From: Escherichia coli
GTDB taxonomy: Bacteria; Pseudomonadota; Gammaproteobacteria; Enterobacterales; Enterobacteriaceae
Reading direction: 5' to 3' (one strand)
NCBI RefSeq assembly: GCF_003334315.1
Contig: NZ_QOWR01000024.1
DNA length: 64,000 nt
The notes beneath the pieces were generated by a model. That model was not told the origin of the DNA. It searched no databases and saw only the letters and a list, made by a program, of their open reading frames with translations. Shown here in pieces: positions 1 through 55,939 of this stretch. Numbering within the stretch: the first letter of the stretch is position 1; each line of letters opens with the position of its first letter. The position numbers and the translations under genes were made by a program.

Positions 1-258
1 TTATCGTGAGAGTAATTCATCGGCACGTTAAATCATATCAGGCGTAATACCACAACCCTTAAGTTAGCGCTTATGGGGTAAAACCCCGCGTACTGAATTG
101 TGATGGTTTGGTCTCCTGCACCCTTTTTTAATTTATATTGTTTATGTGAATATTATGCCTATGTTTATTATTCATATATATTACGGATGAAAATTATTTG
201 ATTATTCATAATGTAAATATTTTATTGAATGATATATATCACAGATAATTTTTAATAT
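1..258. promoter_or_regulatory. AT-rich region upstream of cas3, probable cas3 promoter and nucleoid-protein (H-NS-type) silencing target
   Basis: Bases 120-258 are very AT-rich (runs of tttatt/atatat) directly before the cas3 ATG at 259; AT-rich tracts are typical H-NS targets and cas promoters are known to be H-NS silenced in E. coli. Confidence 0.4.
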
Positions 259-2958
259 ATGCGTAAATATCCTTTAAGTTTACTGAAGGATAAAAATATT
301 GTGACTTTTTTTGATTTCTGGGGAAAAACCCGACGCGGCGAGAAAGACGGGGGCGACGACTATCACCTTCTTTGCTGGCATTCGCTGGATGTAGCCGCGA
401 TGGGCTATTTAATGGTTAAAAGAAATTGCTTCGGGCTGGCTGATTATTTTCGTCAATTAGGGATTTCTGACAAGGAACAGGCGGCTCAATTTTTCGCCTG
501 GTTGCTGTGCTGGCACGATATTGGAAAATTTGCCCGCTCTTTTCAACAACTTTACCTGCCCCCTGAACTCAAGATTCAGGAAGGTGCCAGAAAAAATTAC
601 GAAAAAATCTCTCATTCAACGCTGGGCTACTGGTTGTGGAATCATTATTTAAGTGAATGTCAGGAGTTACTTCCTTCATCTTCGCTCTCTCCGCGCAAAC
701 TTAGGCGAGTGATAGAAATGTGGATGCCCGTGACGACAGGGCATCATGGTCGGCCCCCTGATCGTATGGATGAATTGGATAATTTTCTGCCTGAAGACAA
801 AGCTGCAGCACGAGATTTTCTCCTTGAAATCAAACCACTGTTTCCGCTCATAGAGATCCCCGCATTCTGGGATGATGATGAGGGCATTGAACTTATAAAA
901 CACCTTTCCTGGTATATCTCTGCAACCGTCGTGCTCGCAGACTGGACGGGTTCGTCAACGCGATTTTTTCCACGCGTCGCACACCCAATGGATATTAAAG
1001 GTTACTGGCAGAAAACTTTAATTCAGGCTCAAAACGCCTTAACCGTCTTTCCTCTAAAAGCAAAAGTCGCGCCTTTCAACGGAATTAATACGCTGTTTCC
1101 TTTTATTGAGAATCCGACACCGTTACAGCAAAAGGTGCTGGATCTGGATATCAGCCAGCAAGGACCGCAGTTATTTATTCTGGAAGATGTGACTGGCGCA
1201 GGTAAAACAGAAGCGGCGCTTATCCTGGCGCACAGGTTGATAGCTGCGGGGAAAGCTCAGGGGCTGTTTTTTGGTCTGCCAACAATGGCAACGGCCAATG
1301 CCATGTACGATCGGCTGGTCAAAACCTGGCTTGCTTTCTATTCGCCAGAATCCCGCCCCAGCCTGGTGCTGGCACATAGTGCCCGCACATTAATGGACCG
1401 CTTTAATGAATCACTCTGGTCTGGTGATTTAGTCGGGTCAGAAGAACCGGATGAACAAACGTTCAGTCAGGGATGTGCGGCCTGGTTTGCCGACAGTAAC
1501 AAGAAGGCGTTGCTGGCTGAAATTGGCGTCGGCACGCTGGATCAGGCGATGATGGCGGTGATGCCGTTCAAACATAATAATCTGCGGCTTCTGGGGCTGA
1601 GTAACAAAATCCTGCTGGCTGATGAGATCCACGCCTGTGACGCTTACATGTCGTGCATTCTTGAAGGGTTGATCGAGCGGCAGGCGCGTGGCGGAAACAG
1701 CGTTATTTTGCTTTCTGCCACGTTATCTCAACAGCAGCGCGACAAACTCGTCGCTGCCTTTGCGCGGGGTACAGAGGGCCAGCAAGAAGCTCCGTTCCTG
1801 GAAAAGGATGATTACCCCTGGCTGACGCATGTCACGAAATCCGATGTGAACTCACACCGGGTAGCGACGCGCAAAGACGTTGAGCGTAGCGTCAGCGTGG
1901 GTTGGCTTCATAGTGAACAAGAGTGTATTGCGCGTATCGAATCGGCGGTAAGTCAGGGGAAATGCATCGCCTGGATCCGGAATTCTGTCGATGACGCTAT
2001 TAAGGTTCATCGTCAGCTGCTTGCCCGCGGCGTCATTCCTGCTTCCAGCCTTTCACTTTTTCATAGCCGCTTTGCTTTTAGCGATCGCCAGCGAATTGAA
2101 ACGGAAACGCTGGCACGCTTTGGTAAATATTGTAGTTTACAGAGAGCGTCGCAAGTCATTGTTTGTACACAAGTAATTGAGCAAAGCGTGGATATTGACC
2201 TGGACGAAATGATCTCCGACCTGGCCCCTGTTGATTTGCTGATTCAGCGAGCAGGACGATTACAGCGGCATATCCGCGATATTAATGGTCAGTTAAAGCG
2301 TGACGGAAAGGACGAGCGTTCCCCCCCTGAATTGCTGATTCTGGCTCCCGTCTGGGACGACTCTCCTGGCGACGAATGGTTTGGCAGTGCCATGCGTAAC
2401 AGTGCATTTGTCTATCCCGATCATGGGCGAATCTGGCTGACGCAGCGTGTGCTGCGTGAGCAAGGTGCTATTCAGATGCCACACGCAGCCCGGCTTCTTA
2501 TTGAATCCGTCTACGGTGAGGACGTGGTAATGCCGGAAGGATTTGCCCGCAGCGAGCAGGAGCAAGTGGGCAAATATTACTGTGATCGCGCAATGGCTAA
2601 AAAGTTTGTGCTGAACTTCAGGCCCGGCTATGCCGCCAATATCAACGATTACCTCCCGGAAAAACTGTCGACACGTCTGGCTGAGGAGTCTGTTTCCCTG
2701 TGGCTGGCTACCTGTATTGACGGTGTGGTGAAGCCTTATGCCACCGGTGCTCACGCATGGGAAATGAGCGTTGTCAGAGTGCGCCGAAGCTGGTGGAAAA
2801 AACATCGGGATGAGTTTTCTTTACTGGAGGGAGAGGCGTTCAGGCTGTGGTGCATTGAACAGCGACAAGATCCGGAGATGGCAAACGTGATTTTAGTCAA
2901 CGATGACGAAAGTTGCGGGTATTCGGCTACGGAAGGATTGATTGGCAAGGTTGGTTGA
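259..2958 (+). CDS. cas3: Cas3 HD-nuclease/SF2 helicase, type I-E (899 aa)
   Basis: N-terminal HD motifs (HLLCWHSLDVAAMG, CWHDIGKF), helicase Walker A (TGAGKTEAA) and DEIH box (LLADEIHACD); lies directly upstream of the Cascade genes. Confidence 0.93.
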   Translation: MRKYPLSLLKDKNIVTFFDFWGKTRRGEKDGGDDYHLLCWHSLDVAAMGYLMVKRNCFGLADYFRQLGISDKEQAAQFFAWLLCWHDIGKFARSFQQLYLPPELKIQEGARKNYEKISHSTLGYWLWNHYLSECQELLPSSSLSPRKLRRVIEMWMPVTTGHHGRPPDRMDELDNFLPEDKAAARDFLLEIKPLFPLIEIPAFWDDDEGIELIKHLSWYISATVVLADWTGSSTRFFPRVAHPMDIKGYWQKTLIQAQNALTVFPLKAKVAPFNGINTLFPFIENPTPLQQKVLDLDISQQGPQLFILEDVTGAGKTEAALILAHRLIAAGKAQGLFFGLPTMATANAMYDRLVKTWLAFYSPESRPSLVLAHSARTLMDRFNESLWSGDLVGSEEPDEQTFSQGCAAWFADSNKKALLAEIGVGTLDQAMMAVMPFKHNNLRLLGLSNKILLADEIHACDAYMSCILEGLIERQARGGNSVILLSATLSQQQRDKLVAAFARGTEGQQEAPFLEKDDYPWLTHVTKSDVNSHRVATRKDVERSVSVGWLHSEQECIARIESAVSQGKCIAWIRNSVDDAIKVHRQLLARGVIPASSLSLFHSRFAFSDRQRIETETLARFGKYCSLQRASQVIVCTQVIEQSVDIDLDEMISDLAPVDLLIQRAGRLQRHIRDINGQLKRDGKDERSPPELLILAPVWDDSPGDEWFGSAMRNSAFVYPDHGRIWLTQRVLREQGAIQMPHAARLLIESVYGEDVVMPEGFARSEQEQVGKYYCDRAMAKKFVLNFRPGYAANINDYLPEKLSTRLAEESVSLWLATCIDGVVKPYATGAHAWEMSVVRVRRSWWKKHRDEFSLLEGEAFRLWCIEQRQDPEMANVILVNDDESCGYSATEGLIGKVG

Positions 2959-3055
2959 GATGTCTGCGACAGGACTCTCTGAATAGTTGATACACCGAAA
3001 AGGATGGAAAGATGGACAACCGACCTGGGATGGTCTTTTTTACGAGAGGATGCGT

Positions 3056-4618
3056 ATGAACTCGTTTTCACTTCTGACAACCCCGTGGTTGCCCGTTCGT
3101 TTTAAAGACGGAACGACAGGCAAACTGGCGCCAGTCGATCTGGCGGATGAAAATGTTGTCGATATTTCTGCGCCGCGGGCAGATCTCCAGGGTGCGGTAT
3201 GGCAGTTTTTGCTGGGGCTACTACAAACCAGCTTCGCGCCAAAAGATCATCGTCGTTGGGATGATATCTGGGAAGACGGACTGGAAGCTGAAAAGCTACG
3301 GGAAGCATTGCAGTCATTAGAACATGCTTTCCAGTTTGGGCCAGATTCCCCTTCATTTATGCAGGATTTCGAGGCGCTCACCGGAGATAAAGTTCCGGTC
3401 GCTTCGCTACTGCCTGAGATTCCCGGCGCTCAAACAACGAAGTTTAATAAAGACCACTTTATCAAGCGTGGTGTAACGGAATACCTGTGCCCACATTGTT
3501 CTGCGTTAGCTCTGTTCTCCCTACAGTTGAATGCGCCGTCAGGTGGCAAAGGCTACCGCACCGGTTTACGCGGCGGTGGGCCGATGACCACTCTGATTGA
3601 ATTACAGGAATATCAGGGTAATCAACAAACTCCCTTGTGGCGCAAACTGTGGATCAATGTCATGCCGCAGGATGAAGCCGATTTACCGCTACCCAAAAAA
3701 TTTGACGATCTGGTTTTCCCCTGGCTTGGCCCGACGCGCACCAGCGAACTGGCCGGTGCGGTGGTAACCGATGAGCAGGTCAATAAACTCCAGGCGTACT
3801 GGGGAATGCCTCGCCGTATTCGTATTGATTTTAATACCACGACAGTCGGCAACTGCGATATTTGCGGTGAGCAGAGCGACGCGCTCCTGAGCCTGATGAC
3901 GACCAAAAATTACGGTGCGAATTATGCCATGTGGCAGCATCCCTTAACGCCTTACCGTGTACCACTTAAAGAGGGTGGCGAGTTTTACTCCGTTAAACCA
4001 CAACCGGGCGGTTTAATCTGGCGTGACTGGTTAGGCCTTATCGAAACGGGTAAATCAGAAAACAATACGGAACTTCCCGCGCTGGTGGTGAAACTCTTCA
4101 ATGCCAGCAGTCTCAAGCAGGCAAAAGTGGGCCTGTGGGGATTTGGCTATGATTTCGACAACATGAAAGCGCGCTGTTGGTACGAACACCATTTCCCGCT
4201 GCTGCTCGATAAAAAAGAAGGTCAGATACCGAAGCTGCGGCTGGCTGCGCAAACAGCTTCACGGATTCTAAGTCTGTTACGGAGTGCATTGAAAGAAGCA
4301 TGGTTCTCCGATCCAAAAGGTGCAAGGGGTGATTTTAGTTTTGTGGATATCGACTTCTGGAACAAAACTCAGCATCGCTTTCTGAGGTTAGTGCGCCAAA
4401 TTGAAGAAGGTCAGGATGCGGATGAATTACTCAGCAAATGGAATAAGGAAATTTGGTTATTCGCACGTCAGGATTTTGACGAGCGTGTATTCACCAATCC
4501 TTATGAGCCCGTTGATCTGGAACGCGTCATGACCGCGCGCAAGAAATATTTTACAACATCGGCGGAGAAGCAAAGTGCTAAAGCCGCCAGGGAGAAAAAG
4601 CAGGAGGCTGCTGAATGA
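3056..4618 (+). CDS. cse1: Cse1 (CasA) Cascade large subunit, about 520 aa
   Basis: First gene after cas3 in a I-E operon; start placed at MNSFSLLTTPWLPVRF by analogy with the CasA N-terminus (MNLLIDNWIPVRP) and a GAGG RBS at 3046-3049. The ORF track begins earlier at 2987, and an ATG at 3050 is an alternative. Confidence 0.8.
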   Translation: MNSFSLLTTPWLPVRFKDGTTGKLAPVDLADENVVDISAPRADLQGAVWQFLLGLLQTSFAPKDHRRWDDIWEDGLEAEKLREALQSLEHAFQFGPDSPSFMQDFEALTGDKVPVASLLPEIPGAQTTKFNKDHFIKRGVTEYLCPHCSALALFSLQLNAPSGGKGYRTGLRGGGPMTTLIELQEYQGNQQTPLWRKLWINVMPQDEADLPLPKKFDDLVFPWLGPTRTSELAGAVVTDEQVNKLQAYWGMPRRIRIDFNTTTVGNCDICGEQSDALLSLMTTKNYGANYAMWQHPLTPYRVPLKEGGEFYSVKPQPGGLIWRDWLGLIETGKSENNTELPALVVKLFNASSLKQAKVGLWGFGYDFDNMKARCWYEHHFPLLLDKKEGQIPKLRLAAQTASRILSLLRSALKEAWFSDPKGARGDFSFVDIDFWNKTQHRFLRLVRQIEEGQDADELLSKWNKEIWLFARQDFDERVFTNPYEPVDLERVMTARKKYFTTSAEKQSAKAAREKKQEAAE

Positions 4619-5151
4619 GTATTGTAAAAGAGGAGCACAAAGCCACGCTGCGCAAATGGCACGAGGAATTGCAGGAGAAACGTGGCGAACGTGCCAGTCT
4701 GCGGCGTAGTACGACGGTTAATGATGTTTGTCTGACGGATGGATTTCGCCTGTTTCTGAAGAACAGACAAATAAAGTGGCAGGATGAACCTGAGTGGCGT
4801 ATCACCGCACTGGCGCTGATAGCCGCAGTTAGCGCCAATGTTAAAGCTATTGATGAACGGCAGCCTTTTGCCGCGCAGCTGGCGGCGGTAATGTCAAAGG
4901 GGCGTTTTACTCGTCTGTCGGCAGTAAAAACACCGGATGAATTACTGCGCCAGTTACGCCGCGCAGTCAGATTATTAAACGGTTCCGTCAATCTTGACTC
5001 TCTGGCAGAGGGGGTCTTCCGTTGGTGCCAGGAGAGCGACGACCTGCTCAATCATCACCGCCGCCAGCAGCGGCCAACCGAATTTATCCGTATCCGCTGG
5101 GCGCTGGAATATTACCAGGCTGGCGACGCCGATAACGAACAAAATCAATAA
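4615..5151 (+). CDS. cse2: Cse2 (CasB) Cascade small subunit (178 aa)
   Basis: Small ORF in the Cse2 position; start overlaps the cse1 stop (ATGA-type coupling). Confidence 0.85.
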   Translation: MSIVKEEHKATLRKWHEELQEKRGERASLRRSTTVNDVCLTDGFRLFLKNRQIKWQDEPEWRITALALIAAVSANVKAIDERQPFAAQLAAVMSKGRFTRLSAVKTPDELLRQLRRAVRLLNGSVNLDSLAEGVFRWCQESDDLLNHHRRQQRPTEFIRIRWALEYYQAGDADNEQNQ

Positions 5152-5162
5152 AGGACTATCTC

Positions 5163-6218
5163 ATGACAACATTTATTCAGCTTCATTTGTTAACCGCTTA
5201 CCCTGCTGCCAACCTTAACCGTGATGATACCGGTGCGCCAAAAACTGTGGTGCTGGGTGGAGCAACGCGTCTGCGCGTTTCCTCGCAAAGTCTGAAATGT
5301 GCGTGGCGCACTTCTGCACTTTTTGAACAGGCACTGGCGGGCCATATTGGTATTCGCAGTGGGCGTATTGCGCGTGAGGCGGCAACTATCCTGATTGAGA
5401 AAGGAATCGAAGAGAAAAAAGCCATCGAATGGGCGGCAAAAATTGCAGATTATCTTGGGAAAGCTAAAAACGACAAAAAACCAAAAGATCCGCTCACTAA
5501 CGCCGAAACTGAACAGTTAGTCCATATCAGCCCGGCAGAATTTGACGCCGTAAAAGTGCTGGCCCATCAGCTTGCAGAAGAAAAGCGCGCGCCAAAAGAG
5601 GAAGATCTCGCGTTGTTACGCAAAGACCGTATGGCGGTAGATATTGCCATGTTTGGTCGTATGCTGGCGAATAAACCCGAGTTTAATGTTGAAGCCGCCT
5701 GCCAGGTAGCGCACGCATTTGGTGTCAGTGAAATGATTGTCGAAGATGATTTTTTCACCGCCGTTGATGATTTGCGCCAGGCTTCTGAAGATGCCGGTGC
5801 CGGGCATCTTGGTGAAACCGGATTCGGTTCTGCACTGTTCTACACCTATATCTGCATTGATAAAGATCTGCTGGTCGAAAACCTTGGCGGTGACGAAGCG
5901 TTAGCTAATCAGACCATACGTGCCTTTACGGAAGCCGCACTTAAAGTCTCCCCAACCGGCAAACAGAACAGCTTTGCCAGCCGTGCCTACGCCTCCTGGG
6001 CGCTGGCAGAAAAAGGCACCGATCAACCGCGTTCTCTGGCGGCAGCTTTCTATGAACCCATTAATGGCACCCGTCAGTTAGAGGTGGCGGTGCAGCGTAT
6101 TACAACTCTTCGCGAAAATATGAATACGGTCTACGAACAGAAGACCGATTACGCAAGTTTTGACGTGATGAACAAACAGGGAAGCATGAAGGACGTGCTG
6201 GACTTTATCTGCGCGTAA
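5163..6218 (+). CDS. cas7: Cas7e (CasC) Cascade backbone subunit (351 aa)
   Basis: N-terminus MTTFIQLHLLTAYPAANLNRDDTGAPK matches the Cas7e/CasC N-terminal signature (HLL..YP..NLNRDDTG) and the gene is in the expected position. Confidence 0.9.
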   Translation: MTTFIQLHLLTAYPAANLNRDDTGAPKTVVLGGATRLRVSSQSLKCAWRTSALFEQALAGHIGIRSGRIAREAATILIEKGIEEKKAIEWAAKIADYLGKAKNDKKPKDPLTNAETEQLVHISPAEFDAVKVLAHQLAEEKRAPKEEDLALLRKDRMAVDIAMFGRMLANKPEFNVEAACQVAHAFGVSEMIVEDDFFTAVDDLRQASEDAGAGHLGETGFGSALFYTYICIDKDLLVENLGGDEALANQTIRAFTEAALKVSPTGKQNSFASRAYASWALAEKGTDQPRSLAAAFYEPINGTRQLEVAVQRITTLRENMNTVYEQKTDYASFDVMNKQGSMKDVLDFICA

Positions 6219-6228
6219 GGGGCGGCTT

Positions 6229-6975
6229 ATGAGCCAATATCTGATTTTTCAGCTTCATGGGCCGATGGCGTCCTGGGGTGTCGATGCTCCAGGTGAAGTT
6301 CGTCATACCCATGAACTTCCTTCGCGCTCAGCATTGCTGGGGCTACTGGCTGCCGGGGTAGGGATTCGGCGTGATGATACCGAACGCTTAAACGCGTTTA
6401 ATCGCCACTATTCACTGGTGGTTTGCGCCAGCCGTAACCCGCGCTGGGCACGGGATTATCACACGGTCCAGATGCCAAAAGAGGTGCGTAAAGCACGTTA
6501 TTTCAGCCGTCGCGAAGAGTTGAGCGACCCTGAGCTTTTGAGCGCGATTATCTCCCGGCGCGACTACTACACCGATGCCTGGTGGATGGTGGCGGTGGCA
6601 ACAACCCCCGATGCGCCTTACAGCCTCGAACAGTTGCAGGACGGTTTACGCCATCCGGTTTTTCCGCTTTATCTGGGGCGAAAAAGTCATCCGCTGGCGT
6701 TACCACTTGCGCCGTTACTGCTCGAAGGCAACGCGTCTGATGTCTTACGTAACGCATACCAACAGTATCAGGATCGTTTCCGCGAACTGAAAGTCTCACT
6801 CCCGAAACTTCAGGATGAATGCTGGTGGGAAGGGGAGCACGATGGTTTGGTCGCAAGCAAAATATTACGCCGCCGGGATGTTCCTTTAAATCGTCAGCAG
6901 TGGCTGTTTGGGGAACGCACCATCAATCAGGGGCCGTGGCTCAGCAAGGAGGAACCATGTACCTCTCAAGAATAA
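6229..6975 (+). CDS. cas5: Cas5e (CasD) Cascade subunit (248 aa)
   Basis: N-terminus MSQYLIFQLHGPMASWG resembles the Cas5e signature (MRSYLILRLAGPMQAWG); 3' end overlaps the cas6e start by 19 nt. Confidence 0.9.
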   Translation: MSQYLIFQLHGPMASWGVDAPGEVRHTHELPSRSALLGLLAAGVGIRRDDTERLNAFNRHYSLVVCASRNPRWARDYHTVQMPKEVRKARYFSRREELSDPELLSAIISRRDYYTDAWWMVAVATTPDAPYSLEQLQDGLRHPVFPLYLGRKSHPLALPLAPLLLEGNASDVLRNAYQQYQDRFRELKVSLPKLQDECWWEGEHDGLVASKILRRRDVPLNRQQWLFGERTINQGPWLSKEEPCTSQE

Positions 6976-7603
6976 CCTTACATACCGGCCAGCTTTCGCC
7001 TGCGCAGTTGCTGCATCTGGTGGATCGCGGTGAATATGTGATGCATCAGTGGTTGTGGGATCTCTTCCCTGGCGGCAAAGAAAGGCAATTTCTTTATCGT
7101 CGGGAAGAACTCCAGGGCGCGTTTCGCTTTTTTGTCCTCTCGCAGGAACGCCCGGCAGAAAGTGAAACTTTCACCATCGAATGCCGGTCATTTACGCCCG
7201 AGCTGAGTACCGGACAACAACTTTGTTTCAACCTGCGGGCGAATCCAACAATCTGTAAAGCGGGCAAGCGCCACGATCTGCTGATGGAGGCGAAACGGCA
7301 GGTGAGGGGACAGGCGGAAGGAAGTGATGTCTGGTTGCATCAACAACAGGCGGCGCTGGACTGGCTGGCAGCGCAGGGGGAAAGAAGTGGTTTTACACTA
7401 CTGGATACCTCGGTTGATGCCTACCGACAACAACAACTCCGGCGGGAAAACTCCTGGCAACTGATCCAGTTCAGTAGTGTGGATTATACGGGGATGCTTA
7501 CGGTCACCGATCCTGGGTTATTTCTGCAACGTCTCAGTCAGGGGTATGGCAAAAGCCGGGCGTTCGGTTGTGGTCTGATGCTGATCAAACCTGGAGCAGA
7601 GGC

Positions 7604-7607
<4 letters not shown>
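6957..7607 (+). CDS. cas6e: Cas6e (CasE) pre-crRNA endoribonuclease (216 aa)
   Basis: Start placed at the internal ATG at 6957 (MYLSRITLHTG), matching the CasE N-terminus MYLS; C-terminal GCGLM motif. The ORF track start at 6819 is an artificial 5' extension. Confidence 0.88.
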
Positions 7608-8817
<1,210 letters not shown>

Positions 8818-8912
8818 GTTATCCGTTCTTTAAAAATAAGGAAATGTTTTAATTTAGTTGGTAGATTGTTGATGCGGAATAAATTTGTTTAAAACAGTTA
8901 TGTATGCTTAGT
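8818..8912 (+). promoter_or_regulatory. CRISPR leader (AT-rich), contains the array promoter and probable IHF-bending region
   Basis: About 95 bp of AT-rich sequence between the cas2 stop and the first repeat, the standard I-E leader position. Confidence 0.75.
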
Positions 8913-9429
8913 GTGTTCCCCGCGCCAGCGGGGATAAACCGGAGCGTAGAGATTCTCGAAACCGATCCGGACGGTGTTCCCCGCGCCAGCGGGGATAAAC
9001 CGAATAAATAATAATCCAGTAGCCCCATGTATTAGTGTTCCCCGCGCCAGCGGGTATAAACCGGTAATAAAAAATATTCTATTTCTGCTGAATCAGTGTT
9101 CCCCGCGCCAGCGGGGATAAACCGCTTGCGAGCAAAAGATCCAGGCCGAGAAAGACGTGTTCCCCGCGCCAGCGGGGATAAACCGCGATAACCGCGTCAG
9201 TATTGGACAGGATATCAGTGTTCCCCGCGCCAGCGGGGATAAACCGAATCTATTGTGAATTTGAAATGGTCCAGCACTGTGTTCCCCGCGCCAGCGGGGA
9301 TAAACCGGGTAAAAACACGGTCTGAACCGACATTCATGTGTGTTCCCCGCGTCAGCGGGGATAAACCGGGCGCACTGGATGCGATGATGGATATCACTTG
9401 GAGTTCCCCGCCCCTGCGGTAGAACTCCC
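8913..9429 (+). CRISPR. Type I-E CRISPR array: 9 repeats of 29 bp (last one degenerate) and 8 spacers of 32 bp
   Basis: Repeat GTGTTCCCCGCGCCAGCGGGGATAAACCG at 8913, 8974, 9035, 9096, 9157, 9218, 9279, 9340 with a strict 61-bp period; repeat 3 has GGGTATAAACC, repeat 8 has GCGTCAGC; terminal degenerate repeat GAGTTCCCCGCCCCTGCGGTAGAACTCCC at 9401-9429. Spacers at 8942-8973, 9003-9034, 9064-9095, 9125-9156, 9186-9217, 9247-9278, 9308-9339, 9369-9400. Confidence 0.97.
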
Positions 9430-20211: not shown

Positions 20212-20243
20212 AAAAGGTCCGATGCCCATCGGACCTTTTTATT
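20212..20243. terminator. Bidirectional intrinsic terminator between rpoS and ygbN
   Basis: Perfect hairpin ggtccgatg-ccc-catcggacc flanked by an A-run and a T-run. Confidence 0.7.
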
Positions 20244-26954: not shown

Positions 26955-27059
26955 GGTTTTACCCTGTAAAATAAGCTTTCCTATTATACAGGGTGTTTTT
27001 ATTTTATTCGTCAGTTGTCGTTAATATTCCCGATAGCAAAAGACTATCGGGAATTGTTA

Positions 27060-29621
27060 TTACACCAGGCTCTTCAAGCGATAAATCCACTCCAGCGCCT
27101 GACGCGGGGTGAGTGAATCCGGATCAAGATTTTCCAGAGCTTCGACCGCAGGCGAAGTTTCTTCTGGTACTGACAGCAAAGACATTTGCGTACCATCCAC
27201 TTGCGTAGCGGCGGCGTTCGGCGAAATGCTTTCCAGCTCACGCAGCTTTTGCCGTGCGCGCTTAATAACCTCTTTTGGCACGCCTGCCAGAGCTGCAACC
27301 GCCAGGCCGTAGCTTTTGCTCGCCGCGCCATCCTGCACGCTGTGCATAAAGGCAATGGTGTCGCCGTGCTCCAGTGCATCGAGATGCACGTTAGCGACGC
27401 CTTCCATTTTCTCCGGTAACTGGGTCAGCTCGAAATAGTGGGTAGCAAACAGCGTCAATGCCTTAATCTTATTCGCCAGATTTTCTGCGCACGCCCACGC
27501 CAGCGACAGACCATCGTAAGTGGACGTTCCACGCCCGATCTCATCCATCAATACCAGACTGTACTCGGTGGCGTTATGTAAAATATTGGCGGTTTCGGTC
27601 ATCTCCACCATAAAGGTTGAGCGCCCGGACGCCAGGTCATCTGCCGCGCCTACGCGGGTAAAGATGCGATCGATAGGTCCAATCTCGACTTTTTGTGCCG
27701 GTACATAGCTGCCGATGTAGGCCATCAGCGCAATCAGTGCGGTCTGGCGCATATAGGTACTTTTACCGCCCATGTTCGGACCGGTGATGATCAACATGCG
27801 GCGCTGCGGCGACAGATTCAGCGGGTTGGCGATAAATGGCTCATTCAGTACTTGTTCAACTACCGGATGGCGACCTTCGGTAATGCGAATGCCCGGTTTA
27901 TCAATGAAGGTCGGGCAGGTGTAGTTCAGGGTATAGGCGCGTTCCGCCAGGTTCACCAGCACGTCGAGTTCCGCCAGCGCGCTCGCGCTCTGTTGCAACG
28001 CTTCCAGATGCGGCAACAGCAGGTCGAACAACTCTTCATAAAGCTGTTTTTCCAGTGCCAGTGCTTTGCCTTTTGAGGTGAGAACTTTATCTTCGTACTC
28101 TTTTAGCTCTGGAATGATGTAGCGCTCGGCGTTTTTCAGCGTCTGGCGACGCATGTAGTTGATGGGTGCCAGATGGCTTTGCCCACGGCTGATTTGAATG
28201 TAGTAGCCGTGCACCGCATTAAAGCCAACTTTCAGCGTGTCCAGGCCGGTACGTTCACGCTCGCGGACTTCCAGACGCTCCAGATAATCGGTCGCGCCGT
28301 CAGCCAGCGCGCGCCACTCATCCAGCTCTTCGTTATAGCCCGATGCGATAACACCACCGTCGCGTACCAGCACCGGCGGTGTGTCGATGATTGCTCGCTC
28401 CAGCAGATCGCGCAGCTCGGCAAACTCGCCCATCTTCTCACGTAGCGCCTGTACCGGTGCACTATCGACAGTTTCTAACTGCGCACGCAGCTCCGGCAGT
28501 TGCTGGAAAGCGTGGCGCATACGGGCCAGATCGCGTGGGCGAGCAGTTCGTAAAGCCAGACGTGCCAGAATACGTTCCAGGTCGCCGACCTGACGCAGTA
28601 CCGGCTGTAGCCCGGCGGTGAAATCCTGCAATGCGCCAATAGTTTGCTGGCGCTCAAGCAACACGCGGGTATCGCGCACTGGCATATGCAGCCAGCGTTT
28701 CAGCATACGGCTGCCCATCGGCGTGACGGTGCAGTCGAGCACAGAAGCCAGCGTATTTTCCGCACCACCCGCCAGGTTCTGGGTGATTTCCAGATTACGA
28801 CGCGTCGCGGCATCCATAATGATGCTGTCCTGCTCACGTTCCATGGTGATGGAACGAATATGCGGCAGAGTCGTACGTTGGGTATCTTTCGCATACTGCA
28901 ACAGACAACCGGCAGCACAAAGTCCGCGCGGCGCGTTCTCGACGCCAAAACCGACCAGATCGCGGGTCCCAAATTGCAGATTCAACTGCTGGCGCGCGGT
29001 GTCGATTTCAAACTCCCACAGCGGGCGACGGCGCAGGCCGCGACGGCCTTCAATTAACGACATTTCAGCAAAATCTTCTGCATACAGCAGTTCCGCAGGA
29101 TTAGTGCGTTGCAGTTCTGCCGCCATCGTTTCGCGGTCAGCCGGTTCGCTCAGGCGAAAACGCCCGGAACTGATATCCAGCGTCGCGTAGCCGAAACCTT
29201 TGCTGTCCTGCCAGATAGCCGCCAGCAGGTTGTCCTGACGCTCCTGCAACAGGGCTTCATCGCTGATGGTGCCTGGCGTAACGATACGCACAACTTTGCG
29301 CTCAACCGGACCTTTGCTGGTCGCCGGATCGCCAATTTGTTCGCAGATGGCAACGGACTCTCCCTGATTCACCAGTTTGGCGAGATAGTTTTCCACCGCA
29401 TGGTAGGGAATCCCCGCCATCGGGATCGGCTCTCCCGCCGAAGCACCGCGTTTGGTCAGTGAAATATCCAGCAGTTGCGACGCGCGTTTTGCGTCGTCAT
29501 AAAACAGTTCATAAAAATCACCCATCCGGTAAAACAGCAGGATCTCGGGATGCTGGGCTTTCAGCCTGAGATACTGCTGCATCATGGGCGTATGGGCGTC
29601 GAAATTTTCTATTGCACTCAT
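27060..29621 (-). CDS. mutS: DNA mismatch repair protein MutS (853 aa)
   Basis: Full-length MutS with Walker A (GPNMGGKST) and the conserved N-terminal mismatch-binding region. Confidence 0.97.
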
Positions 29622-29867
29622 GGGGTTATGTCCGGTTCCCTGATATTAAATGGGGTGTGATGGTTTTTATTTTCGTTGTAATCACATAAGGCGCACATGA
29701 TACCGGAGTTAATCATTTCAGGGGAAGAAGCGAACGGCGAGTTCTTGATGCTGGTTCCGGGAAAGATGCTGTTTTGCAGCTTTTGCGTGATGCTTATGAA
29801 GCAAGTACGCAAAATTGTATCGGTTGGCGAACCCTTCTTCTTTGGAGTCATAGTGCCCTTTAAGATT

Positions 29868-29890
29868 AAGATGTAATATAAATACATCTT
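29868..29890. promoter_or_regulatory. NsrR-type operator in the ygbA promoter
   Basis: AAGATGTAATATAAATACATCTT, a perfect inverted repeat (AAGATGTA / TACATCTT) 18 bp upstream of the ygbA start; matches the NsrR consensus AAGATGyATTTnAAATrCATCTT. Confidence 0.75.
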
Positions 29891-29907
29891 AATGAGGTGG
29901 AGGCAGC

Positions 29908-30261
29908 ATGTCCGGCAAGCGTATCTCTCGTGAAAAACTGACGATTAAAAAAATGATCGATCTTTATCAAGCGAAATGCCCGCAGGCGTCAGCGGAGCCG
30001 GAGCATTACGAGGCGTTGTTTGTTTACGCGCAAAAGCGGCTGGATAAATGTGTGTTCGGCGAAGAGAAACCAGCCTGTAAGCAGTGTCCGGTGCACTGTT
30101 ACCAGCCTGCAAAGCGTGAAGAGATGAAACAGATTATGCGTTGGGCCGGGCCGAGAATGCTGTGGCGTCATCCGATCTTAACCGTGCGTCATCTCATCGA
30201 TGACAAGCGTCCGGTGCCAGAACTGCCGGAAAAATATCGTCCGAAAAAACCTCATGAATAG
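29908..30261 (+). CDS. ygbA: Cysteine-rich protein YgbA (NsrR regulon, nitrosative stress) (117 aa)
   Basis: 117-aa ORF with multiple Cys, located between mutS and fhlA with an NsrR box upstream. Confidence 0.85.
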   Translation: MSGKRISREKLTIKKMIDLYQAKCPQASAEPEHYEALFVYAQKRLDKCVFGEEKPACKQCPVHCYQPAKREEMKQIMRWAGPRMLWRHPILTVRHLIDDKRPVPELPEKYRPKKPHE

Positions 30262-30297
30262 TATGCCGGACAGGCAGATCTGTCCGGCAATTTGCAG
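30262..30297. terminator. Bidirectional hairpin between ygbA and fhlA
   Basis: Inverted repeat gccggacag-gcagat-ctgtccggc immediately after both stop codons. Confidence 0.65.
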
Positions 30298-32376
30298 TTA
30301 AATCAATGCCGATTTATCAATTCCCAGCCGCTTCATCCGTGACAGCAGGGTCGTGCGTTTCAGCCCCAGACGTTGCGCAGCGCCTTTAGGCCCGGCAACC
30401 ACGCCGTTGGTTTCTTTCAGCACGCGCACAATCAACTGATATTCATCTTCGCCCTCCAGGGCGACAACCGTTGCGGCAGGCGGCGTTTCAGGTTCCGGTA
30501 AAACAATATCTGGCAATGACAGCTGCAGCACGTTACCGCGTGTTAGCAATACCGCGCGCTCAATGACGTTTTCCAGTTCGCGTACGTTACCCGGCCACTC
30601 CATGTTGCTCAAGGTGCGCAGCGTCTCGGCAGGAATGCTGTCGATATTGCGCCCCAGACGACGGGCAATTTTGAAGGTAAAGGCTTTCGCCAGCAGCGGA
30701 ATATCTTCCGGACGCTCGCGTAGTGGCGGCAGGTGAATCGGGAATACGTTCAGGCGGTAATAGAGATCGCTACGGAACTCACGGTCGGCGACCATTTTTT
30801 TCAGATCGCGGTTAGTCGCGGCGATTAGACGCACGTCCGTCTGAATGATTTTGTTGCTGCCGAGACGTTCAAACTCCTGTTCCTGCAATACACGCAGCAA
30901 CTTCGGCTGTAACTCCAGTGGCATATCGCCCACTTCGTCGAGGAACAGGGAGCTTTTATCCGCCAGTTCAAAACGACCGATACGCTGGGCGCTGGCACCG
31001 GTAAAAGCCCCACGCTCATGACCAAACAGATCGCTTTCCAGCAATCCGGCAGGCATCGCCGCGCAGTTCATTTTGACCATGCGGCGATTATTACGCCCAC
31101 TGAGATTATGGATCGCACGGGCAATCAGCTCTTTACCCGTGCCAGTTTCACCGAGGATCAGCACGGTACTGTCACTTTGCGCCACCATTTCAACTTGTTT
31201 AAGCACGCTGTACATGGCTTCGCTGCGGCCAATAATCTCGCCAAATTCACTATCAACATTGTTGAGCTGCTCGGTCAGGGCGAGGTTTTCATCAACCAGC
31301 CGTTCTTTCAGACGATGGATTTCCTGATAGGCGAGGGCGTTATCGACAGCGATTGCCACACGTTCGGCAATCTGGCGCAGTAAATTCAGATTGGTAGTGG
31401 TAAACACTTTCTCTTCGCATTGCGCCAGTTTCAGCACGCCCAGCATGGTGTCGCCAGACATCAGCGGTAACAGGCACAAGGTTTGAATCTGGTTGCCCCA
31501 GGTGTCGAACAACATGCGTTCATAGGGGGCTAAATCGTCCCGCTCGTGGAGATTGATCAGCAGCATCTCTTTACTTTTGAACACGCGTTCGGTGAGGGTT
31601 CCGGCTTCATCGACTTCGCTCTGTTCGTGGGCGGGATGCTGTTTATCAAGATAGTGAGTGGAGTAGATGTTGAGTTTGTTTTTACGGTGGCTGCGTAAGA
31701 CGATACTGATATCGTCAATGTCGAAATAGTAATGGATTTCTTTGGCGACTTCGCTGACCAGTTCGTCCATATCCAGGCGGGAAAGCACCGCGTTGGTGAT
31801 GGCGACCAGGATGCGGAAGTTATCGCGTTCCCGGCATAACAACTCATAGTCGACATTGTTAACGACGCGGCTCTGGATTTGTTCGGTGACGACAGAAACG
31901 ATCTGCGTAAATGTTTGCAGACGATTGAACTCTTTTTCGCTCCAGGGGCGATCGTCATAACGAATAAATTCACAGCCACCAAAAATATGCCCTTCCGCCG
32001 CCAGTGGCATCAGGCAATAGTGACCAAATTTTGGGTATAGCCCACCTGCGTCCAGCTGCGGCCAGGTTTCACAAAATTCTTCGTAACTGCAATGCAGCGT
32101 ATCAGGGCGCGACAAAATGCTGCGTACCGGACCGTGTGCCAGAACAGTTTCGTCTTCATATTTAATGGGGGTGTCTTTTTCACGCGACGCGTAATAAGAC
32201 GCACGTTGAGTCTGCGCTTGCCACAACACAATAGCCGCGTTGTCGGCGAGCGCAGAACGCTTTACCAGTTGCGAAAGAGCCTCACACAGCGAGGCCAGAT
32301 CGGGCTGCTGCAATAGTGTCCGAGTGATGTCGAACAACCCTTGTTGTCCGAGATCACTCATCGGTGTATATGACAT
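30298..32376 (-). CDS. fhlA: Formate hydrogenlyase transcriptional activator FhlA (sigma-54 bEBP, 692 aa)
   Basis: N-terminus MSYTPMSDLGQQG, AAA+ sigma-54 interaction domain ([14 protein letters not shown]) and C-terminal HTH; the track ORF carries a 12-codon upstream extension. Confidence 0.95.
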   Translation of the reverse strand: MSYTPMSDLGQQGLFDITRTLLQQPDLASLCEALSQLVKRSALADNAAIVLWQAQTQRASYYASREKDTPIKYEDETVLAHGPVRSILSRPDTLHCSYEEFCETWPQLDAGGLYPKFGHYCLMPLAAEGHIFGGCEFIRYDDRPWSEKEFNRLQTFTQIVSVVTEQIQSRVVNNVDYELLCRERDNFRILVAITNAVLSRLDMDELVSEVAKEIHYYFDIDDISIVLRSHRKNKLNIYSTHYLDKQHPAHEQSEVDEAGTLTERVFKSKEMLLINLHERDDLAPYERMLFDTWGNQIQTLCLLPLMSGDTMLGVLKLAQCEEKVFTTTNLNLLRQIAERVAIAVDNALAYQEIHRLKERLVDENLALTEQLNNVDSEFGEIIGRSEAMYSVLKQVEMVAQSDSTVLILGETGTGKELIARAIHNLSGRNNRRMVKMNCAAMPAGLLESDLFGHERGAFTGASAQRIGRFELADKSSLFLDEVGDMPLELQPKLLRVLQEQEFERLGSNKIIQTDVRLIAATNRDLKKMVADREFRSDLYYRLNVFPIHLPPLRERPEDIPLLAKAFTFKIARRLGRNIDSIPAETLRTLSNMEWPGNVRELENVIERAVLLTRGNVLQLSLPDIVLPEPETPPAATVVALEGEDEYQLIVRVLKETNGVVAGPKGAAQRLGLKRTTLLSRMKRLGIDKSALI

Positions 32377-32449
32377 TTTGTTCTTCCAGGAAAGCACCGC
32401 AAAGCGGTGCAAAAGGTCATTGACTAACTATAGGAGATTTAGAATTTTA

Positions 32450-36740: not shown

Positions 36741-36864
36741 GCTGAGGCTTTGCCCGTTTTGCAGGCGTTACGCCTGTTTGGGGATGGGCGTGTCGATGAG
36801 TGTCGAAAATGACATTTCATCGGCATGTTTTCGTCAAAAATGACAATCACCTGAGGAATGCCTG

Positions 36865-51668: not shown

Positions 51669-52802
51669 CTACATCGGCAATGTTTTCAACAATCCAAATG
51701 CCTCTTTCATCCGATCCTCACTGACCACAAAGGCGCGAAGCTGGTCAGCATCGTCAACGCCGCGCGCCACCATTCCCTGGCGTTCGGTATTAATTTGCCA
51801 GCGTAAATCCTGACGCTGGGTTTCGCCTGCCAGATGCAGCGGTAATTCCGGCGTTTTGATTTTCACCAGCATCGCCGGGAGTTTCAGCGGCGTGTTATTG
51901 CCGAGAAGATTTTTTGCCAGCACCATCGCGCTAAGTTGAATCGGCTGGAGGAACGGCAATACCTGACCGTTAATTTCCGCGCAATCGCCCAGCGCGTAAA
52001 TATCGGTATTACTGGTTTGCAGATAACTATCGACGCAAACGCCGCGATTAATCGTCAGCCCGGCGCGTCGTGCCAGGGCGGTTTCCGGGCGCAGTCCGGT
52101 GGCGGCAATTACCGCATCCACTTCGATATTGCGCTGGCGGTCCAGCGTTGCCTGAATGCCAGAATCCGTTTTTTCCAGCCCCTGTAACTGAGATTTCAAC
52201 AGCAGATGAACGCCCATCTCCGTCAACCGATGCTGCAAGCGGCTGCTTACTTCCGGTGGCATTAACGACGCCAGAATACTGGCAGCGTTGTCGATTAGCG
52301 TGACCGCTTTGCCTGCACGACAAAAATCCATCGCCAGTTCGCTACCAATCAAACCACCGCCAACAATCAACACGCGTCGGGCATCCCGCAGTTGCGTTTC
52401 ACAGGCGCGATACTCTTGCTGACTATTTAACGTCAGCATTAACTCACGCCCAGGCACAGGCGGGACAAAGGCACTGGCACCGGTTGCCAGTACTAGCTTG
52501 TCGTATTGCCACTGATTATTCTGGCTTTTCACCACACGGGCTTCGGCATCGATATCCGTCACCCAGGTTTGTGGAAACAGGTGCAGATTAAACTGCTCGG
52601 CAAATTCACCCGCCGTCTGGCGGGTAAGGTCATCGGCACGTTGCCCCTGACTGATAACATGGCTGATGTCAGGTTTGTTGTACTCATCCATGCTGTCGGC
52701 GGCAATCAAGGTTAATGGAATAGTGGCGTCCTGTTTGCGAATATTTTTCACCAGTTGTCGGGCGGCGAAGCCCGAACCAATGATCACAATGCCGTTGCTC
52801 AT
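51669..52802 (-). CDS. norW: NADH:flavorubredoxin reductase NorW (377 aa)
   Basis: FAD/NAD Rossmann motifs ([22 protein letters not shown]). Confidence 0.95.
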
Positions 52803-54238
52803 TTTGCCTCCGATGCCAGTTCGTCAAAGACGTCTTTGCCGAGGGAGCATTCCGGGCAGAGGAAGTTATCCGGAACTTCACTCCACGGCGTTCCTGGCGC
52901 AACGTCCTGCATTGGCTCGCCTTTTGCCGGATCGTAAATCCACTGGCAGACGCTGCACTGCATCCGTGGGCCGAGGTCAGCCGTCGTGGTGGCAGAGGTT
53001 TCTTCTTTAACCACCGAATTCACCGTGCTCTGCGGCAGCGGCGCGAGCGCCCACTGACGGGCGATTTCGCGACCGTGTTCACGGCATAACTCCAGAGCGT
53101 CCTGGTCTGGTCGCCATTTGGCTTTCAGGCTGAGCGACATTTCGAAACCCGCATCCTGCAGGCGCGTGGAAAGACGATCCACCGCACCGCCGCTCCAGCC
53201 GTGAGATCCGAAAGCACTGGCGCGTTTGTTACGGAAGCGTAATCCGGTCATCTCCTCCACCAGCCCGGCGATTTTCGGCATCATCACGTTATTCATCGTC
53301 GAAGTGCCGACCAGCACGCCTTTTGAGCGGAAGACATTGGTCAGGATTTCGTTTTTATCGCTTCGGGCGACGTTGAAAATTTTCACCGCCACGCGTGGGT
53401 CGGTTTCCGCAATTCCCTGGGCGATAGCGTCAGCCATCATGCGGGTGTTATTCGACATGGTGTCGTAGAAAATGGTGATTCTGTCTTCCTGATAATCAGC
53501 CGCCCATTTCAGGTACAGCTCGACAATTTGCGTCGGGTTATCGCGCCATACCACGCCGTGGGAAGTGGCTATCATATCGACTGGTAAGTTAAAGCCCAGG
53601 ATCTCGGTAATTTTCGGCGTTACCAGGCGGCTGAACGGCGTCAGGATATTGGCGTAGTAACGTTGGCACTGCTCGAAAAGCTCCGTCTGATCCACTTCAT
53701 CGTTGAACAGATGCTCGTCGCAGTAGTGCTGACCGAAAGCATCGTTACTGAACAGCACCGCGTCGCCTGTCAGGTAAGTCATCATGCTGTCCGGCCAGTG
53801 CAGCATTGGTGTTTCGACAAAAATGAGCTGTTTGCCGTTGCCGATATCCAGCGTGTCGCCAGTTTTCACCACATTAAAATTCCACTCCGGATGATGGTGA
53901 TGACCATTTATCGAGTCGATAGCGTTGGCAGTACAGTAGATCGGCGTATCGGGAATTTGTGCCATCAGTTCGGTCAGCGCCCCAGCGTGGTCCTCTTCTG
54001 CATGGTTAATCACGATGTAATCGATATCCGCCAGATCGATTTCATTACGCAGGTTCTGCACAAATTCGCGGCTGAATTTATGGTCGACGGTGTCGATCAG
54101 CACGTTTTTTTCTTCGCGGATGAGGTAGCTATTGTAGCTGCTGCCGCGCAGCGTTTTATATTCCGTGCCGTGAAAATCACGCACTTCCCAGTCACGTTGA
54201 CCAACCCAATGAATGTTATTTTTCACCACAATAGACAT
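52799..54238 (-). CDS. norV: Anaerobic nitric oxide reductase flavorubredoxin NorV (479 aa)
   Basis: Metallo-beta-lactamase-like diiron domain (HAEEDHAG), flavodoxin domain and C-terminal rubredoxin (CxxC...CPxC). Confidence 0.95.
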
Positions 54239-54302: not shown

Positions 54303-54356
54303 TTTTTTATCTGATTGTTTTTACTCTATAAATAAAATTATGCCCATTAATGAGTA

Positions 54357-54412
54357 GTCAAAATGACTATCAATCAAATGGTCGATATGACAATATCTAT
54401 AGTCAAATTGAC
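54357..54412. promoter_or_regulatory. Three NorR binding sites (GT-N7-AC inverted repeats)
   Basis: GTCAAAATGAC (54357-54367), GTCGATATGAC (54381-54391), GTCAAATTGAC (54402-54412), the classic triple NorR enhancer immediately upstream of norR. Confidence 0.85.
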
Positions 54413-54424
54413 AGTGAGGCAAAG

Positions 54425-55939
54425 ATGAGTTTTTCCGTTGATGTGCTGGCGAATATCGCCATCGAATTGCAGCGTGGGATTGGTCATCAGGATCGTTTTC
54501 AGCGCCTGATCACCACGCTACGTCAGGTGCTGGAGTGCGATGCGTCTGCGTTGCTACGTTACGATTCGCGGCAGTTTATTCCGCTTGCCATCGACGGTCT
54601 GGCAAAGGATGTACTCGGTAGACGCTTTGCGCTGGAAGGGCATCCACGGCTGGAAGCGATTGCCCGCGCCGGGGATGTGGTGCGCTTTCCCGCAGACAGC
54701 GAATTGCCCGATCCCTATGACGGTTTGATTCCTGGGCAGGAGAGTCTGAAGGTTCACGCCTGCGTTGGTCTGCCATTGTTTGCCGGGCAAAACCTGATCG
54801 GCGCACTGACGCTCGACGGGATGCAGCCCGATCAGTTCGATGTTTTCAGCGACGAAGAGCTACGGCTGATTGCTGCGCTGGCGGCGGGAGCGTTAAGCAA
54901 TGCGTTGCTGATTGAACAACTGGAAAGCCAGAATATGCTGCCAGGCGATGCCACGCCGTTTGAAGCGGTGAAACAGACGCAGATGATTGGCTTGTCCCCT
55001 GGCATGACGCAACTGAAAAAAGAGATTGAGATTGTGGCGGCGTCCGATCTCAACGTCCTGATCAGCGGTGAGACTGGAACCGGTAAGGAGCTAGTGGCGA
55101 AAGCGATTCATGAAGCCTCGCCACGGGCGGTGAATCCGCTGGTCTATCTCAACTGTGCTGCACTGCCGGAAAGTGTGGCGGAAAGTGAGTTGTTCGGGCA
55201 TGTGAAAGGAGCGTTTACTGGCGCTATCAGTAATCGCAGCGGGAAGTTTGAAATGGCGGATAACGGCACGCTGTTTCTGGATGAGATCGGCGAGTTGTCG
55301 TTGGCATTGCAGGCCAAGCTGCTGAGGGTGTTGCAGTATGGCGATATTCAGCGCGTTGGCGATGACCGTTGTTTGCGGGTCGATGTGCGCGTGCTGGCGG
55401 CGACTAACCGCGATTTACGCGAAGAGGTGCTGGCAGGGCGATTCCGCGCCGATTTGTTTCATCGCCTGAGCGTGTTTCCACTTTCGGTGCCGCCGCTGCG
55501 TGAGCGGGGCGATGATGTCATTCTGCTGGCGGGGTATTTCTGCGAGCAGTGTCGTTTGCGGCAGGGGCTCTCCCGCGTGGTATTAAGTGCCGGAGCGCGA
55601 AATTTACTGCAACACTACAGTTTTCCGGGAAACGTGCGCGAACTGGAACATGCTATTCATCGGGCGGTAGTTCTGGCGAGAGCCACCCGCAGCGGCGATG
55701 AAGTGATTCTTGAGGCGCAACATTTTGCTTTTCCTGAGGTGACGTTGCCGCCGCCAGAAGTGGCGGCGGTGCCCGTTGTTAAGCAAAACCTGCGTGAAGC
55801 GACAGAAGCGTTCCAGCGTGAAACTATTCGTCAGGCACTGGCACAAAATCATCACAACTGGGCTGCCTGCGCGCGGATGCTGGAAACCGACGTCGCCAAC
55901 CTGCATCGGCTGGCGAAACGTCTGGGATTGAAGGATTAA
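54425..55939 (+). CDS. norR: NO-responsive sigma-54 activator NorR (504 aa)
   Basis: GAF domain, AAA+ sigma-54 interaction domain ([14 protein letters not shown]) and HTH; start at [15 protein letters not shown] (the track ORF is extended across the enhancer). Confidence 0.95.

Follow-up and report, generated by a model that had tools for sequence, protein, structure and literature searches.

A conserved NsrR operator upstream of ygbA in Escherichia coli and its probable overlap with the promoter

The ygbA locus and its palindrome

The window, by which we mean the whole 64-kb (64,000-nucleotide) stretch of E. coli DNA analysed here, carries ygbA on its plus strand (29908–30261), with mutS (27060–29621) and fhlA (30298–32412) on the minus strand to either side; the fhlA coordinates are those of the longest open reading frame (ORF), the gene annotated in K-12 MG1655 being shorter. 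The 117-residue ygbA product corresponds to MG1655 b2732 and belongs to the YgbA_NO family (Pfam PF11756; E = 1.4e-40, residues 4–106), and RefSeq names it a 'nitrous oxide-stimulated promoter family protein'. Five of its residues, C48, C57, C60, H63 and C64 (spaced C-x8-C-x2-C-x2-H-C), are invariant in 12 orthologues, a pattern of cysteines and histidine that suggests a metal or Fe-S site. Many RefSeq E. coli genomes match the 1-kb piece around the site discussed below at 100% identity and carry the annotation mutS / ygbA / fhlA there, and positions 9340–64000 align with MG1655 at 99.0–99.5% identity in reverse orientation. Positions 1–9339 have no MG1655 alignment; they hold a divergent type I-E cas operon, with large ORFs at 259–8527 (+), and a 2.5-copy CRISPR remnant at 8974–9124 (repeat GTGTTCCCCGCGCCAGCGGGGATAAACCG).

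Upstream of ygbA, the initial annotation had described a perfect inverted repeat with 8-bp arms at 29868–29890. The 23-mer there reads AAGATGTAATATAAATACATCTT and its outer 8 bp on either side are fully complementary, as described, although the arms in fact reach 11 nt: the whole perfect palindrome (29865–29893, unstranded) consists of ATTAAGATGTA at 29865–29875 and TACATCTTAAT at 29883–29893 around a 7-nt spacer, with ATT and AAT flanking the 23-bp motif externally. Read in the 11-1-11 register of NsrR operators, the same 23 bp form the inverted repeat AAGATGTAATA-T-AAATACATCTT (29868–29890, unstranded), in which 9 of the 11 symmetric pairs match and whose 3' edge lies 17 nt before the ygbA ATG (29908). 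The window has three perfect inverted repeats whose arms reach 11 nt or more with spacers of up to 12 nt, against 0.25 expected from Markov shuffles. The other two, at 20212–20239 (AAAAGGTCCGATG..CATCGGACCTTTT) and at 27026–27054 (ATTCCCGATAG..CTATCGGGAAT), the latter directly 3' of the mutS stop codon, look like terminators by their position.

Match to the NsrR motif and conservation across enterobacteria

NsrR, an iron-sulfur protein of the Rrf2 family, is a repressor and a sensor of nitric oxide (NO). When the window was searched with the degenerate NsrR consensus AAGATGYNTTTNAAANRCATCTT, allowing up to three mismatches, the ygbA site was the sole match, at two mismatches, and 100 dinucleotide-preserving shuffles yielded none. 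The NsrR motif itself was derived by Rodionov et al. 2005 (PMC1274295). We also scored the window with a palindromised weight matrix built from the 25 other distinct 11-1-11 sites of Table 4 in PMC5320621, ygbA being excluded: the ygbA site scores 22.9 bits, the top of the window, while the top scores of 200 random sequences of 64 kb average 13.8 bits (s.d. 2.2) and reach 20.6 at most. It carries the AAGATGCATTT-N-AAATGCATCTT inverted repeat characteristic of 11-1-11 NsrR operators and would stand about 7th among the 26 published sites of that type, below ytfE (32.1 bits) and hcp (27.2 bits) and above hmp (21.2 bits). The description of the site as near-consensus was a fair one.

The E. coli operators of ytfE (AAGATGCATTTAAAATGCATCTT), hmp (hmpA; TTGATGTATCTCAAATGCATCTT) and hcp (AAGTTATATTTAATATACATGTT) have the 11-1-11 repeat and the outer arms AAGATG...CATCTT in common with ygbA (PMC5320621 Table 4), and like it are promoter-proximal, NsrR-repressed and NO-induced. 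They differ from it in the interior of the left half-site, the inner part of which departs from the NsrR consensus (TAATA in place of CATTT): ygbA has TAATA-T where the other three have CATTT-N, apparently because its half-site doubles as a −10 hexamer.

Two further loci in the window bear on NO regulation. Positions 36807–36829, between hycA and hycB, read AAATGACATTTCATCGGCATGTT, identical to a published NsrR site that was ChIP-seq-positive in strain CFT073 and is assigned there to hycB (PMC5320621 Table 4); this is the second-best matrix score of the window, at 16.9 bits, but the sequence belonged to the training set. The norVW promoter, like that of ygbA, is NO-responsive, yet it is served by NorR, a second dedicated NO sensor, which is a sigma-54 enhancer-binding activator acting at GT-N7-AC sites (PMC1274295), in contrast to the repressor palindrome of ygbA; the two share no mechanism. 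Nor are the two adjacent, as the initial annotation had placed them: norW (51669–52802) is followed by norV (52799–54238) and norR (54350–55939 as the longest ORF, the annotated MG1655 start mapping to about 54425), and the end of norW is 21.4 kb away from ygbA, with fhlA, hypA-E, hycA-I, ascGFB, hydN and hypF in between.

Alignment of YgbA orthologues gave 80 loci, one per species, from Escherichia, Citrobacter, Salmonella, Enterobacter, Klebsiella, Raoultella, Kluyvera, Lelliottia, Leclercia, Pluralibacter, Phytobacter and Trabulsiella, together with Rahnella and Hafnia. Within the 200 nt upstream of ygbA, the best matrix match ends 12–22 nt before the ATG in 79 of the 80 species, the exception being Hafnia, where it ends 41 nt before. 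Best scores in the −80..−1 region have a median of 19.8 bits, compared with −5.8 bits (maximum 8.4) in a control segment at −480..−401; in both position and score, the site thus shows the phylogenetic footprint of an NsrR operator. A profile anchored on the site finds A2, T7, A8, T12, T22 and T23 invariant, A1, G6, A11 and C18 conserved in at least 98% and A19 in 95%; conservation is moderate at the flanking positions −2/−1 and +24/+25, and bases at least 3 nt outside the site are essentially without constraint.

Symmetry, by comparison, is poorly kept. Across the 67 distinct orthologous sites only 5–9 of the 11 pairs are complementary, and the mismatches come without compensation: at pair 7/17, 54 of the 67 have a non-complementary T:G and 13 a complementary pair, and pair 4/20 is complementary in 20. 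Because arm complementarity varies without compensatory change, the conserved entity is, judging by this pattern, two protein-recognition half-sites and not an RNA stem.

A predicted promoter within the operator

Positions 7–12 of the site conform to TAnnAT in 80 of 81 orthologous promoters (TATTAT in 52, TAATAT in 8, TAAAAT in 8, TAGAAT in 7, and others). Within this hexamer A11 is kept at 99% even though the NsrR consensus base at that position is T, while its mirror, position 13, varies freely (A 34, T 25, G 7 and C 1 among the 67 distinct sites), which argues for a constraint on the hexamer beyond NsrR recognition; the A11/T12 pattern would fit what a sigma-70 −10 hexamer (T−12, A−11, A−8, T−7) imposes. 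The predicted −10 element in the window is accordingly placed at TAATAT, 29874–29879 (+), inside the left half-site, and its presence there would account for why, in all the species examined, that half-site deviates from the NsrR consensus. That the NsrR site overlaps the ygbA −10 element, as the initial annotation had proposed, is thus probable on comparative grounds.

The rest of the promoter can be laid out from this hexamer. A weak −35 element, TAGTGC, is predicted 17 bp upstream of the −10, at 29851–29856 (+); it matches the consensus at 2 of 6 positions in the window, compared with CTGAAA (4 of 6) in the Enterobacter/Lelliottia/Leclercia group, and its third base is G in 73 of the 80 species. 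A TTG at the −35 suggested by column majority was rejected as an artefact of pooling CTG with TAG/TGG hexamers, the G alone being conserved. A simple sigma-70 consensus scan of 29550–30350 detected no promoter, an outcome we take to reflect the weak −35 TAGTGC and not a missing promoter. From the geometry of the −10 assignment and the conserved C18–A19 of the site (99% and 95%), transcription is predicted to start at 29886 (+), the A of that CA, 7 nt past the −10 (MG1655 2,856,828, minus strand). The predicted leader would then be 22 nt long and carry the Shine-Dalgarno sequence GGAGG at 29899–29903 (+), 4 nt before the ATG and within a TGGAGGCA block that is invariant in the Escherichia alignment. 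No mapped ygbA start turned up in the supplementary data of ROSE, Cappable-seq and Rend-seq studies or of one Salmonella ChIP-exo paper, and text searches of the literature for a statement on the ygbA promoter or a −10 overlap returned nothing useful.

Several other features occupy the mutS–ygbA intergenic region. Ahead of the ygbA promoter lie, at 29768–29780 (+), a terminator-like hairpin, GCTGTTTTGCAGC, with TTTTGCGTGA after it and, at 29781–29814, an 8-nt inverted repeat, TTTTGCGT/ACGCAAAA. The only FNR-like sequence found by a consensus scan, at 29787–29800, has two mismatches and lies about 92 bp ahead of where transcription is predicted to begin, a non-activating position; we rejected it as a likely chance match. 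A 59-residue ORF at 29697–29876 (+) takes its stop codon from the TAA of TAATAT; it appears as a 'hypothetical protein' of 44 or 59 residues in some RefSeq genomes and is unannotated in MG1655, and because its length differs among strains it is probably a spurious call.

We consider the 23-bp palindrome to be an NsrR operator at the sigma-70 promoter of ygbA that represses by promoter occlusion, a reading to which we give a probability of about 0.93; the precise placement of the −10, −35 and +1 we infer from sequence, and with it the view that repression works by steric occlusion. An NsrR dimer would occupy the two 11-bp half-sites, the left one holding the −10 TAATAT and the right one spanning the predicted start at about 29886. 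Coverage from about −19 to +5 would follow, and with it, given this −10/+1 geometry, exclusion of RNA polymerase from the ygbA promoter. NO, by nitrosylating the NsrR cluster, would release the repressor and allow ygbA to be transcribed.

The operator could instead lie downstream of the true promoter and either act as a roadblock or obstruct the leader, without covering a −10 at all. The poor Escherichia −35 (TAGTGC) at the inferred position and the empty promoter scan would suit such an arrangement, and the constant location of the operator just ahead of the ribosome-binding site is compatible with the leader as well. The same scan, however, offers no better promoter further upstream, and the near-universal TAnnAT (80 of 81) includes an A11 and a T12 that NsrR recognition does not need and whose mirror positions are unconstrained. 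The abstract of the primary study, by Bodenmiller and Spiro in 2006, is moreover reported to place the inverted repeat over the −10 of the ytfE, hmpA and ygbA promoters. Taken with these points, a downstream operator strikes us as improbable.

Still less credit is due to the idea that the palindrome works as an RNA hairpin, whether a leader structure or a terminator of upstream transcription, and not as a DNA operator. Were 29865–29893 transcribed it would indeed form an 11-bp stem of −13.2 kcal/mol (z = −3.9 against shuffles); yet no U-tract follows the stem, its pairing decays uncompensated across the 67 distinct sites as described above, and with the predicted start inside the repeat the stem would be absent from the mRNA. 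An Rfam scan of 29400–30400 at E ≤ 1 returned no RNA family. Binding by some other regulator, such as the Rrf2 protein IscR, or a chance AT-rich palindrome, seems to us equally far-fetched: palindromes are frequent in AT-rich promoter DNA and Rrf2 sites are similar in length, but the score against an NsrR-specific matrix is far beyond chance, the position is kept over 80 species, published genetic and ChIP evidence implicates NsrR, and the FNR-consensus scan offered just the weak match some 90 bp upstream.

NsrR regulation of ygbA and operator alleles within E. coli

Binding, repression and induction by NO or nitrate are known for ygbA from the literature. In E. coli K-12 ygbA is under NsrR repression (Bodenmiller & Spiro 2006, cited by PMC1274295, PMC2884951 and PMC5320621), on evidence that, as these accounts relate it, includes reporter fusions and ChIP-chip, the latter finding the ygbA promoter bound by NsrR in vivo (Partridge et al. 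2009, cited by PMC5320621). Mutation of nsrR in Salmonella raises ygbA mRNA 31.8-fold (Gilberthorpe et al. 2007, PMC2884951), and ygbA transcription is very high in Salmonella within the macrophage vacuole (PMC7232297). For strain CFT073, Mehta et al. 2015 (PMC5320621) list the ygbA site among 27 predicted 11-1-11 sites and the gene among those most highly induced by nitrate/NO; their NsrR ChIP-seq has no ygbA peak, which they judged a probable false negative. The NO-responsive derepression of ygbA by NsrR that the initial annotation predicted is therefore already established, and the reporter and nsrR-mutant experiment it proposed had been published earlier with the predicted outcome. ygbA is a textbook NsrR-regulon gene and its operator an established element, which makes the observation correct but ordinary.

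Within E. coli the operator is polymorphic. Three variants occur among the alleles of the ygbA promoter: the K-12-type AAGATGTAATATAAATACATCTT of the window, AAGTTGTAATATAAATGCATCTT in O157:H7, and AAGTTGTAATATAAATGCACCTT in UTI89, E2348/69, E. albertii and other Escherichia. Reverse-complemented, the last, B2-type, variant equals the ygbA site published for CFT073, AAGGTGCATTTATATTACAACTT (PMC5320621), which occupies the same locus and position as the site in the window; the window allele differs in having A4, A17 and T20, which make its symmetry perfect over 8 bp (11 bp counting the flanks), the B2-type allele being less symmetric. In the Escherichia alignment A4 and A17, the partners of T20 and T7, are confined to the K-12-type lineage and, judged against E. 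albertii, E. whittamii and the cryptic clades, are the derived bases, so that, as far as the alignment goes, the perfect symmetry of the palindrome is a derived, lineage-specific allele (T4>A, G17>A) and not a conserved property of the operator.

Comparison of the 62-bp ygbA promoter (29846–29907) with 5,426 E. coli genomes shows how widely the alleles are distributed. Among complete genomes with a match, 2106 are identical to the window, 746 match at 95–99%, 89 at 90–95% and 2442 at 80–90%; a K-12-like promoter (at least 95% identity) is thus present in about 2,850 genomes and a diverged allele like that of B2 strains, UTI89 and CFT073 in 2,442 (about 45%). This dimorphism fits the character of the fhlA/mutS locus, a known hotspot of recombination and island insertion (PMC7232297).

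Whether the two types behave alike is a separate matter. K-12 is positive for ygbA by ChIP-chip and CFT073 is without a ChIP-seq peak, as far as PMC5320621 recounts both, and the K-12-type and B2/CFT073-type alleles might differ in their affinity for NsrR. We hold this to be doubtful: because the two score almost equally with the matrix (22.9 and 21.95 bits), a functional difference is speculative. If it were real, it could set distinct NO thresholds for ygbA, and would explain the contrast between a ChIP-positive K-12 and a peakless CFT073 without recourse to a false negative.

What the analysis adds to the published picture is the −10 element that appears to be embedded in the left half-site and the polymorphism of the operator within E. 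coli. The main value of the result is that a genuine, experimentally validated operator is recoverable from raw sequence.
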